Position numbers and translations under genes: made by a program
Shown: piece after piece, positions 4,602 through 42,329 of the stretch
How the letters are laid out: each line of letters begins with the position of its first letter
How positions within the stretch are numbered: the stretch's first letter is position 1
DNA from: Candidatus Doudnabacteria bacterium RIFCSPHIGHO2_01_FULL_46_24
GTDB taxonomy: Bacteria; Patescibacteriota; Doudnabacteria; UBA920; O2-02-FULL-48-8
DNA: 42,329 bases
Assembly (NCBI GenBank): GCA_001777575.1
Contig: MFEL01000007.1
Span: 1 to 42,329 of the forward strand
Direction of reading: 5' to 3'
Notes under the pieces: generated by a model
Told to the model about the DNA's origin: nothing
The model's database searches: none
The model's input: only the letters and a program-made list of their open reading frames with translations

Positions 4602-4784
4602 ATGAAGAAATGGCTGGCGGTGGGTCTGGGCATTGGAGTTGTGGCCGGCGGAATCTTTTTTGCGGCCAGAACATGGCAGTGGCTGGCGGCGAAGATCAGA
4701 AGGCCCTGGGACGAGGATTACGTTTCCGAAGAAACCCTATTCCGGCTGCGGCTATTGGACGATGATAAGCGCCGCGATATCTGA
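4602..4784 (+). CDS. Small single-TM protein
   Basis: SD AGGAGG; MKKWLAVGLGIGVVAGGIFF. Confidence 0.65.
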   Translation: MKKWLAVGLGIGVVAGGIFFAARTWQWLAAKIRRPWDEDYVSEETLFRLRLLDDDKRRDI

Positions 4785-4926
4785 AGGGCAGGATTTGCAA
4801 TTTAAGTCCTGTCCTTGCTCGTTGGGGCGATTTTTGTTAAAGTATTGAAGCAAAAATAGAGATTTAGCGTTTTGGTGCGGGGTCACCTGACCCAGAAGTA
4901 GAATTTTTATAATCTGCCTTGCTGAT

Positions 4927-4993
4927 GGGCGCGTAGCTCAGGCGGTTATCCCAGTAGTAGATGCTTCACATCACTACGGGACAGGGAGCGCTA
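4927..4993 (+). pseudogene. 5' half of a tRNA gene interrupted by a palindromic element
   Basis: Removing 4949-4985 restores GGGCGCGTAGCTCAGGCGGTTA|GAGCGCTA exactly. Confidence 0.75.
4949..4985 (-). repeat. CCTG-tailed REP-like palindrome
   Basis: TCCCAGTAGT...ACTACGGGA-CAGG hairpin with no target duplication. Confidence 0.7.
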
Positions 4994-5033
4994 CCCCGCA
5001 CCTGCTATAATTTATCAATTATTCCTTGCTGTT

Positions 5034-5110
5034 GGGCGACTAGCTCAGGTGGTTAGAGCGCGTCACTGATAATGACGAGGTCGATGGTTCGAGTCCATCG
5101 TCGCCCACCA
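5034..5110 (+). tRNA. tRNA-Ile(GAU)
   Basis: Complete cloverleaf, anticodon loop CTGATAA, encoded CCA; extended -10 TGCTATAAT at 5003-5011. Confidence 0.97.
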
Positions 5111-5130
5111 GCAGGGCATAATTATAGGGC

Positions 5131-5222
5131 AGCGCGCCTGCCCCGTACCAAACGCGTAGCGTTTTGGTGCGGGGTCACTGATAATGACGAGGTCGATGGT
5201 TCGAGTCCATCGTCGCCCACCA
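5131..5222 (+). pseudogene. Duplicated 3' part of tRNA-Ile interrupted by a palindromic element
   Basis: 5131-5136 plus 5175-5222 are identical to 5057-5110; the insert 5137-5174 is CCTG-CCCCGTACCAAA...TTTGGTGCGGGG. Confidence 0.85.
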
Positions 5223-5240
5223 AAATCGCAAAGCGATTTT

Positions 5241-5270
5241 GCCTCGAGCGAGCGTAGCGAGTCGAGAGGC
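5241..5270. repeat. REP-like palindrome left of the GIY-YIG gene (inverted partner at about 5458-5497)
   Basis: GCCTCGAGCGAGCGTAGCGAGTCGAGAGGC; its reverse complement resembles CCCCTCGGCTCG...CTCGCTTGGGG on the other side. Confidence 0.6.
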
Positions 5271-5275
5271 TAAAG

Positions 5276-5483
5276 ATGTGGTATTTTTACATAGCAAGGT
5301 GCATTGATAAAAGTTTATATTGCGGTATTAGCAGTAACACCTTGAACCGTATTATTCGCCATAATAATCGCCGAGGCGCAAAATGGTTTACGAAGCATGG
5401 AAGCACAAATCAAGCGTTGGTCGAGAATAAAAAAAGAAAAATTAATTAACGGAGAATACCCCTCGGCTCGACTGAAGGCTTAG
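5276..5483 (+). pseudogene. GIY-YIG nuclease (YhbQ/UPF0213-like), internally deleted and frameshifted
   Basis: MWYFYIARCIDKSLYCGIS...RIIRHN...GAKW, then EAQIKRWSRIKKEKLI in another frame from 5400. Confidence 0.8.
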
Positions 5484-5517
5484 TCTCGCTTGGGGTAAAA
5501 ATTTTTTCAAAATTTTT

Positions 5518-5757
5518 ATGAGATTTGTCTGGGGAATGGTTTGGGTAGTGATAGGGTTTTTGCTAATTAGATACAATTACCTGCTGGTGGGATTTTTTGG
5601 CCATGTGCCGTGGGCCGAACAGCACATTGGTGGTGGGGGGACATACACACTTTACAAAATCGTCGGAGTCATCGTCATTATCCTCGGCATGCTGTACGCC
5701 TTCAATGCTGTTGGCTTCCTTACCGGCCCAGCCGGCACCCTGTTTCCTTCGCAATAA
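5518..5757 (+). CDS. Small two-TM membrane protein
   Basis: Two hydrophobic segments around WAEQHIGGGGTY. Confidence 0.75.
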   Translation: MRFVWGMVWVVIGFLLIRYNYLLVGFFGHVPWAEQHIGGGGTYTLYKIVGVIVIILGMLYAFNAVGFLTGPAGTLFPSQ

Positions 5758-5763
5758 TTACTC

Positions 5764-6088
5764 GGGCCATTAGCATAGTGGTAGTGCACCCGGCCGCGCC
5801 CCGTAGTCAACCGTAGGTTGTACTATCGGGGTTTGCACCCCGTACTAAATTTTTGATATTTGTTTTGTTGGGCCGTTAGCTCATTTGGTAGAGCGCCACA
5901 TTTGCAATGTGGAGGTGACCGGTTCGAGCCCGGTACGGTCCACCAGGATAAGAATCAAAAATTAGTACGGGGCAAGTCCGGCGGGTGCGAGTTCGATTCT
6001 CGCACGGTCCACCAGGATAAGTGATTTTCAAAAAATTAGTACGGGGCAAGTCCGGTGGGTGCGAGTTCGATTCTCCCATGCTCCACCA
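5764..6088 (+). pseudogene. Disrupted outer tRNA-Ala(UGC): 5' half 5764-5793, loop remnant 5832-5837, two 3' halves 5977-6014 and 6051-6088
   Basis: Removing the palindromic inserts gives a cloverleaf with G3.U70, loop TTTGCAT, T-loop TTCGATT and ACCA. Confidence 0.7.
5870..5945 (+). tRNA. tRNA-Ala(UGC)
   Basis: Complete cloverleaf, G3.U70 pair, anticodon loop TTTGCAA, encoded CCA. Confidence 0.97.
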
Positions 6089-6145
6089 GAATTCAGCATA
6101 GATTTGAGAATCGCCGGCAAGGCGATTTTTTGATATGATTAGATC

Positions 6146-7066
6146 ATGGATACTCAAGAATATATTTGTGAGACTTGTGGAGGAAATCATCCCACCGATG
6201 CACATCAAGACAATCTTGAAAATCGTCCGGAAGTCTCCATAGATCGGTTACTATCGGATACTCCTGAATCTCGACCAGCTGAACAAAAAAGAGAGTTTTC
6301 TGTTGAAATTAAGGGACAAAAATTCGATTTTTTAGAAATCCAATCGGTTGAATCTTCAGATACCTTGCTTATACATCTTCCCGGGTTCGGGGAAGACGCC
6401 GAGCAATATGCCGAGCCCATGCACGTCTTAATGGAAAAGAGCTACCGTACCGTCGCCTTGAAAAGATACGGGGAAGTATTTTCGAGAGAACTCTTAGTAG
6501 AGGCGCTGGGACAAGTAATTCAATCAAGTGGAAAACAAAATACAGTTTTTCATGGAGATTCTTTTGGCGCGGCTGTTGTATACGACTTGATTAGTAACCC
6601 TGCCGATCGTGAATTTCTAAAAAGAAACAACGTAGTGGGTGCCATTTTAGAAGCACCTTTCTTGGATAAAAATCATCTTAAAGGCAAAGCACGATTAATT
6701 CCAGACGAAGTACTTATACGAGGAAGTATGCTGTTTGATAAAGTCAGGAATCTACGGTCCTTAACACCGCGACAGGACATGGTGGAGTTATCGCCTTCTG
6801 AAAAAAAGAGCATAATAAGGGAGGCGTTGCGAGAGAAAAAAGGCGAAAGAAAAATTGAGGTGCCAATTCACGTTGTTTTTGTTGAAGATGAGAGTCTGTC
6901 TGATAATGAGAAAATTATGAAGACTTTGCAGAGTCAAGGGCAGGAAGTTAGTTCCATTACGGTCATGAGCGCTGATGACAATAGACATCATATTGCAGAT
7001 GGGCAATATGAAGATATGTGGAGAGAAGAAAAAGAAGCGATAGACGTTTTCGTGAAGCCAGTTTAG
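6146..7066 (+). CDS. Alpha/beta-hydrolase-fold protein with an N-terminal CxxCxxxHxxxxH motif
   Basis: LIHLPGFG oxyanion region, GDSFG nucleophile elbow, and a late His (RHHI). Confidence 0.75.
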   Translation: MDTQEYICETCGGNHPTDAHQDNLENRPEVSIDRLLSDTPESRPAEQKREFSVEIKGQKFDFLEIQSVESSDTLLIHLPGFGEDAEQYAEPMHVLMEKSYRTVALKRYGEVFSRELLVEALGQVIQSSGKQNTVFHGDSFGAAVVYDLISNPADREFLKRNNVVGAILEAPFLDKNHLKGKARLIPDEVLIRGSMLFDKVRNLRSLTPRQDMVELSPSEKKSIIREALREKKGERKIEVPIHVVFVEDESLSDNEKIMKTLQSQGQEVSSITVMSADDNRHHIADGQYEDMWREEKEAIDVFVKPV

Positions 7067-36847: not shown

Positions 36848-37150
36848 ATGAAAATACAACATATTGCTAAGACCAACGAAAAAGGCCAAATTGTCATCCC
36901 CAAGGATTTAAGAGACGAATTAGGAATTAGTGATAAAGTTTCTTTACACTTAGTCAAAAAAGGCCCGGGTATTTACATTTACCCTGTAAGCGAAGTTATA
37001 GGCGAATTTGACACTGTTAATTCTTATCTTGCCATTTTAGAAAAAACTCAAGGCAGTTGGGGTCCCGAAACTGTGGAAGAAAAAAGGAGGGAAAAAGCTC
37101 AAAAAAAAATGGAACAAAAAGCGGCAAGATTGGGTAAACAACAATGGTAA
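36848..37150 (+). CDS. vapB: AbrB/MazE-type antitoxin
   Basis: KGQIVIPKDLRDELGI. Confidence 0.88.
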   Translation: MKIQHIAKTNEKGQIVIPKDLRDELGISDKVSLHLVKKGPGIYIYPVSEVIGEFDTVNSYLAILEKTQGSWGPETVEEKRREKAQKKMEQKAARLGKQQW

Positions 37151-37530
37151 TTCTAGATACTAACGTAATCATTGACCATCTTAGACAAGAAAAGGGTCAA
37201 GAGACTTTGCTAAAACGTCTTATTCGAAACAATCTTCAAGAAGATTTGGCAATTTCAATAATATCTATTCAAGAATTATACAGAGGTCAAAGCACTAAGG
37301 ATTCGGAAAAAGAAAATAATATATTGACAACAGTCAGCGCTTTAAAAATTTTGTCTTATTCTTACGAGGCTGCGGAGCTCGCCGGCAAGTTAGCACGCGA
37401 CAGTAAGGGGACTATTGAGTTTGCCGATGCGGCGATTGCGGCCACAGCCTTGGTTAATAATGGCAGTTTGGCGACCTTAAACAAAAAAGACTTCGTCCAA
37501 ATCCCGAATTTGGAATTGCTAGATATTTGA
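37144..37530 (+). CDS. vapC: PIN-domain toxin
   Basis: ILDTNVIIDHL, SIQEL, DAAIAATA, TLNKKDF. Confidence 0.93.
   Translation: MVILDTNVIIDHLRQEKGQETLLKRLIRNNLQEDLAISIISIQELYRGQSTKDSEKENNILTTVSALKILSYSYEAAELAGKLARDSKGTIEFADAAIAATALVNNGSLATLNKKDFVQIPNLELLDI

Positions 37531-41151: not shown

Positions 41152-42329
<1,178 letters not shown>

Follow-up and report, generated by a model that had tools for sequence, protein, structure and literature searches.

We analysed a window of 42,329 nt (the whole stretch of DNA under study, from contig MFEL01000007.1 of Candidatus Doudnabacteria bacterium RIFCSPHIGHO2_01_FULL_46_24), in which an intact tRNA-Ala gene is carried by a palindrome that is itself inserted in the anticodon loop of another tRNA-Ala gene. 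This arrangement is probably the product of a self-complementing palindromic insertion, acting at the DNA level and repeatedly replacing the tRNA gene that it splits. The initial annotation of the window had proposed that the element delivers a replacement allele of the tRNA that it disrupts, and the proposal gained support from similar nests around about 13 of the 47 tRNAs of the genome, from nests in relatives and from the lack of an integrase nearby. The genome that holds the window, hereafter G000, comprises 847 kb in 18 contigs, with 47 tRNA genes according to ARAGORN.

The tRNA-Ala locus and its layers

Two tRNAs were found in the window by both ARAGORN and Rfam, tRNA-Ile(GAU) at 5034-5110 and tRNA-Ala(UGC) at 5870-5945. 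The latter, on the + strand, is intact, of the 76-nt type (Rfam tRNA 65.2 bits) and the sole tRNA-Ala(UGC) of G000. Direct reading of the sequence located every part that the initial annotation had listed around it. The disrupted outermost tRNA-Ala, of the 74-nt type, starts with a 5' exon covering tRNA positions 1-31 (5764-5793, +), which is followed, between positions 31 and 32, by a cargo-less hairpin, "element A" (5794-5831), made of the 5 nt CCGCG and a 33-nt hairpin at 5799-5831. Element A is present at the identical site in the relative G010 and missing in the relative G008. The outer anticodon loop continues with TTTGCA, positions 32-37 (5832-5837, +), as seen by direct reading and reconstruction. 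The left arm of the cargo element (5838-5857, +), recognised as an inverted repeat, and a leader (5858-5869, +) that, according to the inverted repeat and the consensus fold, pairs in part with the CCA end and the trailer, precede the inner tRNA. On its other side, reading, repeats and consensus fold delimited the trailer (5946-5953), the right arm (5954-5972) and a 4-nt tail CAAG (5973-5976), all on the + strand. A first 3' piece, positions 38-76 (5977-6014, +), is followed by a trailer-like spacer (6015-6027), an older right arm (6028-6046) and a second CAAG tail (6047-6050), placed on the + strand by reading, repeats and alignment, and finally by a second 3' piece (6051-6088, +), assigned by reading, alignment and reconstruction as positions 38-76 of the outermost tRNA-Ala. 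The inverted cargo arms, of 19-20 nt, thus sit between positions 37 and 38 of the 74-nt tRNA-Ala allele.

The left arm and the older right arm (5838-5856 and 6028-6046) are 95% complementary over 19 nt, the left arm and the nearer right arm (5838-5853 and 5957-5972) 94% over 16 nt. Right arm plus 3' piece forms a direct repeat (5957-6018 and 6031-6092) with 92% identity over 62 nt. The RNA fold predicted for 5764-6088 places the intact tRNA-Ala at the tip of a long stalk, with -142 kcal/mol and a z of -6.87 that none of 100 shuffles equalled. When the outer pieces were joined by script, ARAGORN called a 74-nt tRNA-Ala(tgc) with G3.U70, whose D, anticodon and T arms are unlike those of the inner tRNA-Ala; the earlier description of an outer tRNA with the same anticodon and G3.U70 and other arms was thereby confirmed. 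The reconstructed tRNA exhibits two unpaired stem positions with 3' piece 1 and three with 3' piece 2, which pairs with the 5' exon at 6-7/66-67, compared to none in the inner tRNA-Ala.

The segment 5977-6088 is collinear with the block formed in G010 and G008 by inner tRNA positions 38-76, trailer, right arm, tail and outer 3' exon, with a mean column identity of 81%. Given this column-for-column match, 3' piece 1 is the relic of an earlier inner tRNA-Ala of 74 nt (generation 1). This earlier inner tRNA-Ala was invaded in turn, at the same 37/38 site, by a related cassette, in a Russian-doll layering. One left-hand unit has since plausibly been lost by recombination between the repeated left arms, and such a loss after the second invasion would leave one 5' half and two units of right arm plus 3' half. 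The initial annotation had described a tandem repeat of right arm and 3' half here; the repeat itself stands, whereas its reading as a simple duplication does not, the segment aligning with the inner-tRNA/outer-exon layout of the relatives.

An identity matrix, made for the tRNA-Ala alleles only, gave, for the inner tRNA-Ala, an identity of 97% to the single allele present in G013 and of 96% to those of G040 and G005, compared to 70% for its own outer copy. In G002, G004, G007 and G022 the only copy is a 74-nt allele, with which the reconstructed outer tRNA-Ala shares 89-93% identity. At the level of allele identity, the comparison showed the Ala cargo to be of a foreign allele type.

The region is rich in repeats, and the contig starts in a 16S gene and ends in a 23S gene (16S 3' end at 1-191, 23S 5' part at 41152-42329), features that would suit an assembly or binning artefact. 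We consider such an origin hardly credible. Unitig-like contigs of several public DNA runs, some of which may be the window's own source, bridge the Ala junctions with 0 differences (5764-5905 and 5906-6300 in X1, 5764-5902 and 5913-6300 in X5, 5912-6300 in X8). The same Ala anatomy was found in two other separately deposited genomes titled Candidatus Doudnabacteria, and nests of this kind occur at many loci elsewhere. The nested arrangement is not an assembly artefact.

Recurrence of nested tRNA genes in the genome and its relatives

A parallel pattern at tRNA-Ile, suspected in the initial annotation, was borne out by split outer pieces around the intact tRNA-Ile(GAU) (5034-5110, +), the sole one in the genome, and by a 49-nt repeat of its 3' part (5174-5222 versus 5062-5110) with 100% identity. 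The outer 5' pieces (4927-4948 and 4986-4991, +) are split by a hairpin element with tail CAGG (4949-4985). The Ile cargo left arm and leader (4992-5033, +) were delimited by the inverted repeat, with the arm CCCCGCACC at 4994-5002 and a TATAAT at 5006-5011. Downstream of the inner gene, 5111-5174 holds the trailer, then the exon piece once more (5131-5136) and a hairpin element in reverse orientation with a 5' tail CCTG (5137-5174). It is followed by the outer 3' exon, positions 29-76 (5175-5222, +), known from the repeat and from a weak Rfam tRNA match of 19.4 bits. The cargo-type leader of the outer 5' piece and the extra copies of a hairpin end (4865-4886) and of the exon piece suggest that this locus is layered much as the tRNA-Ala locus.

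Nesting was assessed throughout G000 by spliced alignment of each tRNA to its own masked flanks, with long gaps allowed and the reversed query as control. Eleven of the 47 tRNAs scored 44-125, compared to at most 36 for the control. Thr-tgt (C1) and Met (C10:17070), both scoring 38, were dropped as likely effects of neighbouring tRNAs. The Ala loci tgc, in the window, and cgc, on contig C4, scored 34 and 33, under the control, because their outer copies are of a different allele; they were added after direct reconstruction. Plain local alignment of tRNA halves to the flanks was discarded as too strict, the control flanks holding other tRNA fragments. The nested set then comprises about 13 of the 47 tRNAs (Trp, Pro-cgg, Ala-cgc, Pro-tgg, Ile, Ala-tgc, Pro-ggg, Thr-cgt, Met, Asp, Glu-ctc, Val-cac and Leu-cag), and the outer copy always has the same amino-acid identity as the inner one. 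Inverted arms scoring at least 10 (control maximum 8) flank 12 of the 47 tRNAs, ten of which are nested loci; the remaining two, Gly-gcc (C9:4267) and Ser-gga (C9:9042), are not clearly nested. The cargo is inserted at 37/38 in both Ala tRNAs, at 33/34 in Met, at 34/35 in Asp, Glu and Trp, at 35/36 in Pro-ggg, in the D loop of Val and in the variable loop of Thr. Removal of the inserts restored a tRNA recognised by ARAGORN for Ala, Ile, Met and Asp.

ARAGORN with introns allowed did not find the outer tRNAs, and the Rfam tRNA model, at E up to 10, detected only three of the approximately 13 in G000, so that the fragments seen in G008 and G010 represent lower bounds. Fourteen T-arm motifs lie outside the called tRNAs: eight beside a nested tRNA, five that are not tRNA-like and one in a tRNA-Asn. 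Each hairpin-disrupted tRNA of G000 has an intact nested replacement, and no isoacceptor relies on an interrupted gene. Among the interrupted tRNAs, a nested replacement is lacking for this tRNA-Asn(GUU) alone (C9:24187-24830, -, locus L021), which is split at 35/36 by a group I intron of about 590 nt (Rfam, 67.7 bits) with an open reading frame (ORF) of 120 aa, HNH-like by eye; ARAGORN missed the gene because the intron splits it. The outer copy around tRNA-Ala(CGC) (C4:43600-43950, -) forms a perfect cloverleaf with G3.U70 and the anticodon TTC; judged by its anticodon, it would misread Glu codons if expressed, and annotation could mis-call this look-alike as tRNA-Glu.

The tRNA-Ala(UGC) and tRNA-Ile loci of relatives were drawn from 40 genomes. 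Five of 16 tRNA-Ala(UGC) loci were nested, plus one with a right-arm remnant only, and six of 19 tRNA-Ile loci, plus two with displaced 3' fragments only. More distant cases are a nested tRNA-Gln in G228 and a tRNA-Asn in G265 with an outer fragment that holds the hairpin; taken with these, the nests of relatives come from at least five families of the phylum. Other nested tRNAs, which the initial annotation had suggested seeking in genomes of the Candidate Phyla Radiation (CPR), were therefore found both in G000 and in relatives, and this recurrence supports its view that the pattern reflects a mechanism rather than chance.

The state of the outer copies, judged by eye, varies between lineages. 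The insert-free outer tRNA-Ile of G011 and G007 corresponds to the widespread live allele and the outer tRNA-Ala of G008 is intact; the outer tRNA-Ile of G008 and of G009 is decayed, with broken T arms, and outers have shrunk to remnants in G013 (about 20 nt) and G002. The order of events could be read at the Met-Met-Asp cluster. In G007 this cluster is compact and free of nests, as it is in G008 according to the match coordinates. In G010, Met2 abuts Asp, and Met1 and Met2 are about 150 nt apart. The outer Met and outer Asp of G000 keep the ancestral 1-nt spacing, and the outer Asp matches the resident allele of G010, from which we conclude that the inner genes are newcomers and that the outers were resident before them. 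Another insert type of about 90-100 nt, starting GGGCAGAAG..GACAAG, occupies the T loop of 3' tRNA fragments that lie displaced downstream of intact tRNAs (L075 in G007, L073 in G002, L011 in G013 and C10 ~163990-164100 in G000).

The distribution of alleles could in principle arise with no transposition at all, rare nested alleles being spread by DNA uptake and homologous recombination through the exon halves or neighbouring genes, as a neutral ratchet. Such a spread would account for the cognate rule, the window holds type IV pilus genes, the inner alleles match those of other genera, and a different family has the same composite tRNA-Ile architecture, its three inserts included, at 72% identity over 298 nt. 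We nevertheless regard it as an improbable explanation of the nests. The Ala cassette, with near-identical arms, sits exactly at 37/38 in residents that differ up to that site; the outer anticodon stem of G008, for instance, differs from that of G000 and G010 on both strands, so that a crossover would have about 6 nt at its disposal. The cassette termini recur across many tRNAs and also outside tRNA genes, and a separate origin would still be required for at least 13 isoacceptors.

The hairpin family and the search for an enzyme

Most cargo inserts and small hairpins share one of three pairs of termini, CCCCGYAC...GTRCGGGG, CCCC-N-GTAGT...ACTACGGGG or TCCGCC...GGCGGA, together with a one-sided 4-nt tail, mostly CAAG, CAGG or TAAA; a single base of the 5' arm is often bulged. 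The target tRNA makes no difference to the conservation of termini and tail, and the distal stems vary between copies with pairing kept. For the Ala arms, leader and trailer, pairing is kept across three genera, with one compensatory change in the arms. The variable but paired distal stems and the kept Ala pairing speak for selection acting on a hairpin whose foot is conserved. The cargo inserts are palindromes of 120-145 nt without coding capacity. The elements of the family occur in both orientations relative to the tRNA, and exhibit no target-site duplication at their exact boundaries and no direct repeats flanking the tRNA sites.

Cargo-less copies also lie in non-tRNA DNA. The GTAGT-type hairpin was found in 20 of 401 sampled genomes of the phylum, compared to one hit for the reversed control pattern; G000 contains 11 GTA-type hairpins, and G228 (L055-L062) 21 near-identical GTAGT-type ones, mostly intergenic. 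A larger palindrome (ATTCTGG...CCAGAAT), which has a 9-nt tail CGCGGCAAG, encloses most of these G228 copies, among arrays of other short hairpins. The hairpin pattern is present in two viral-contig records; in phage records only the tRNA-Ala part of the query matched, and none of 38 records covered at least 80% of it. No Rfam family matched the hairpins at E up to 1.

In the sequence of events that we favour, a small non-coding palindromic cassette, composed of C-rich and G-rich termini, a one-sided 4-nt tail, arms of 12-20 nt that differ in sequence yet remain complementary and a complete tRNA with its own leader and trailer, would insert exactly in a loop of a resident tRNA gene of the same identity. 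The resident gene would be split into a pseudogene, and the cargo tRNA, at the tip of a stalk formed by arm, leader/trailer and acceptor stem, would take over its function. The cycle would then repeat: in the window, the prior cargo tRNA-Ala would have been invaded at the same site, one left-hand unit later being lost. Cargo-less hairpins of the same family would meanwhile pile up in the dead copies and in intergenic DNA. The outer copies look dispensable, being decayed in some lineages and bearing stem mismatches in the window and a Glu anticodon on C4. We infer that they do not give rise to a tRNA product and that folded or single-stranded DNA is the substrate of insertion. The coupling of cargo identity with target identity is likewise a matter of inference; the cognate rule could be explained by selection against non-cognate hits or by homology-assisted targeting by the cargo.

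Several observations weigh against this cassette. No mobilising enzyme was found for it, and near-identical contigs of public DNA runs showed no empty/filled polymorphism, the cassette-free joints among the run contigs stemming from other organisms with 85% likeness. The cassette leaves without explanation why all 13 cargo tRNAs lie in a cognate tRNA and why 37/38 is re-used exactly in Ala alleles whose differences extend as far as the insertion point. Arm-flanked tRNAs were not seen at any site clearly outside a tRNA, the Gly and Ser cases on C9 being ambiguous. Many outers are perfect (Met in G000, Ile in G011 and G007, Ala in G008), 11 of 13 outer acceptor stems of G000 are fully paired by eye, and the outer acceptor of G028 is unique and perfectly paired; perfect outers are predicted by recent insertion and equally by a functional, spliced outer tRNA. 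Finally, the element geometry (4-nt tail, 4-bp CCCC/GGGG helix, 1-nt bulge) and the clustering of insertion sites at 20-22, 26-29, 31-38, 44-48 and 61/62 resemble the geometry and positions of archaeal introns.

The initial annotation had itself raised the objection that the outer halves might be attachment-site (att) remnants of ordinary integrase-type elements, such as phages or integrative and conjugative elements (ICEs), once present in the tRNA genes and later deleted. Directly repeated tRNA 3' parts downstream (for Ile 49 nt at 100%) and relatives that keep only a displaced 3' fragment would fit such an origin. However, the 5' halves are kept too, the insert is bounded by inverted arms, the insertion point ranges from the D loop to the variable loop, and the inserts are non-coding palindromes of 120-145 nt. 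None of the 48 ORFs of the window encodes an integrase or transposase. The genome-wide recombinase search of G000, which was for the tyrosine type and did not extend to serine recombinases, found a single tyrosine recombinase (PF00589, C12:22329-22874), far from the nests on a contig without nested tRNAs. The objection thus did not hold, and we consider an origin from att sites very unlikely.

Other candidates for mobilisation were tried and rejected. Two Y1-transposase genes of G000 (ORFs of about 207 aa, RAYT-like, at C8:137070-137303 and C2:11717-11938, loci L031 and L032) each have their own short hairpin on both sides, unrelated to the tRNA-associated hairpins, and neither G228 nor G010 has a member of the Y1_Tnp family. 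A scan for an autonomous element between inverted repeats spaced 0.26-5 kb gave only rRNA intron hairpins and ordinary genes. The long-range scan revealed no transposase-bearing unit, Pfam having been applied to the ORFs of the C16 and C17 candidates only, which comprise GNAT/ASCH on C16 and MazF-like, cupredoxin and PD-(D/E)XK proteins on C17. Pairs of G228 hairpins flank housekeeping-looking ORFs, GreA-like and FolD-like by eye.

Excision at the RNA level would make the inserts intron-like: a bacterial system would remove the hairpins and the tRNA-bearing stalk, so that one transcript gives the inner tRNA and a re-ligated outer tRNA. The exons do rejoin exactly, several outers are fully intact, some with compensatory stem differences of their own, and the arm pairing is kept across genera. 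The bulge / 4 bp / bulge geometry, and positions that resemble the archaeal non-canonical intron sites, point the same way, and G000 does splice a tRNA, the tRNA-Asn, through its group I intron. We still judge this excision unlikely, in view of the enzymes, the boundaries and the outer copies. EndA (PF01974) gave no hit at E up to 1 in G000 and none above the cut-off in five relatives with nests, where two sub-threshold hits (18.8 and 13.2 bits) fell in ordinary ORFs of 332 aa and 290 aa, and an RtcB-type ligase was found in none of these six genomes. Neither the group I core (RF00028) nor another Rfam intron or ribozyme family matched 4700-6300 at E up to 1, the tRNA-Asn intron of the same genome serving as positive control at 67.7 bits. 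Outers decay in several lineages, one has Ala identity with a Glu anticodon, and, every disrupted copy having an intact replacement, no tRNA depends on an insert.

The boundaries were also considered for a bulge-helix-bulge (BHB) motif. In Ala, TTGC (33-36) pairs with GCAA at the insert end; the inserts of Asp, Met and Glu do not follow this rule, and the BHB reading was rejected. By eye, the insert boundaries, as set by intact alleles, lie at the hairpin foot and not in bulges, so that the splice sites required by RNA excision would be at the hairpin base. The bulges, also by eye, measure 4 nt and 1 nt, compared to the two 3-nt bulges 4 bp apart of the BHB, and tail-exon pairing exists only in Ala. 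That the inserts represent a new kind of bacterial tRNA intron system, neither group I nor EndA-dependent, in which a structure-specific activity cuts out the entire hairpin at its foot, whether or not its loop holds a tRNA, and rejoins the exons, is less probable again. If it were true, one precursor would give two tRNAs and CPR bacteria would possess archaeal-style mobile tRNA genes with multiple introns.

Some features of the window and of G000 stand apart from the nests. In the window, 41 kb separate the 3' end of the 16S gene from the 5' end of the 23S gene. The genes in this interval are ordinary and include type IV pilus, TrpA/B (tryptophan synthase) and LigA genes and a MazE/PIN pair at 36848-37530. 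An ORF for a LAGLIDADG_2 endonuclease (257-844) lies directly beyond the 16S end. Compared to the Rfam model, the 23S 5' region (41152-42329) has insertions of about 50, 62, 24 and 89 nt, two 23S insertions being CCCAGCCCC...GGGGCTGGG-type hairpins (41484-41526 and 41870-41972). Elsewhere in G000, C9:1-4400 (L069) holds a 23S 3' part with a group I intron (65.3 bits) and, beyond the 5S gene, an odd "tRNA-Pro(agg)" of only 24.4 bits with Rfam. A transfer-messenger RNA (tmRNA) was not found by ARAGORN in this genome, whose estimated completeness is 100%. A further family of repeats, 88-230 nt long, delimited by CCCATCCCCGAGGCG...CAGCGGGGATGGG and in some copies containing internal 33-nt tandem repeats, is present at C1:3521, C1:46335, C6:6478, C8:25803, C9:27012, C9:30641 and C10:59921.

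Relation to known elements and meaning

For integrative elements such as phages, ICEs and islands, tRNA genes serve as targets, and the elements bring along a copy of the 3' part of the tRNA. The nests resemble them in the tRNA gene target, in the restoration of tRNA function by the incoming DNA and in the displaced tRNA fragment that remains. They differ in that the cargo is an entire tRNA with leader and trailer, the target keeps both its halves, the insert is a 120-145 nt palindrome without integrase, the loop site varies and nesting is serial.

Short non-coding hairpins are also found in repetitive extragenic palindromic (REP) sequences with their REP-associated tyrosine transposases (RAYT), in IS200/IS605-type hairpin elements and in the Rickettsia palindromic elements, which are akin to MITEs (miniature transposable elements with inverted repeats). 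The REP/RAYT and MITE-like elements too are short and non-coding, with a conserved foot, a variable distal stem and a bulged base; like them, the present family is multi-copy, lies in both orientations and lacks target duplication. It is set apart by the functional tRNA cargo and by insertion into the cognate tRNA. In contrast to REP/RAYT, the Y1 transposases here are flanked by unrelated hairpins and missing from element-rich genomes, and, unlike MITEs derived from DDE transposons, the family has no target-site duplication and no related autonomous element was found.

Like bacterial tRNA group I introns, of which the tRNA-Asn of G000 is an example, the inserts interrupt an essential tRNA in its anticodon loop while its function is kept; those in Ala and Ile, however, contain a tRNA instead of a ribozyme and no group I core. 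Archaeal tRNAs with multiple introns, split and tri-split tRNAs and intron transposition in Thermoproteales are described in a published account (PMC10714607). The likeness lies in several non-canonical positions, short hairpin inserts that behave as mobile units, and complementary leaders. The present host is, however, a bacterium in which no EndA or RtcB was found, the insert boundaries are unfit for BHB cleavage, and an intact replacement is nested in every interrupted gene. No description of nested tRNA genes or of tRNA-carrying palindromic elements in CPR bacteria was present in the full-text literature searched, a body mostly outside the subscription journals.

If excision took place in the RNA after all, the loci would reveal a new tRNA-splicing system in Bacteria. 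If instead the self-complementing insertion holds, they would represent a selfish element that spares its host by bringing a complete working copy of the essential gene that it destroys, and that neither splices itself out nor picks a harmless site. The repeated overwriting of tRNA alleles would drive horizontal turnover of tRNA genes in genomes with one copy of each. The layered tRNA "graveyards" that it leaves would confuse annotation, the live genes being surrounded by half-genes and by look-alikes that mis-code, and would make up a visible part of what is non-coding in a streamlined genome of 0.85 Mb.

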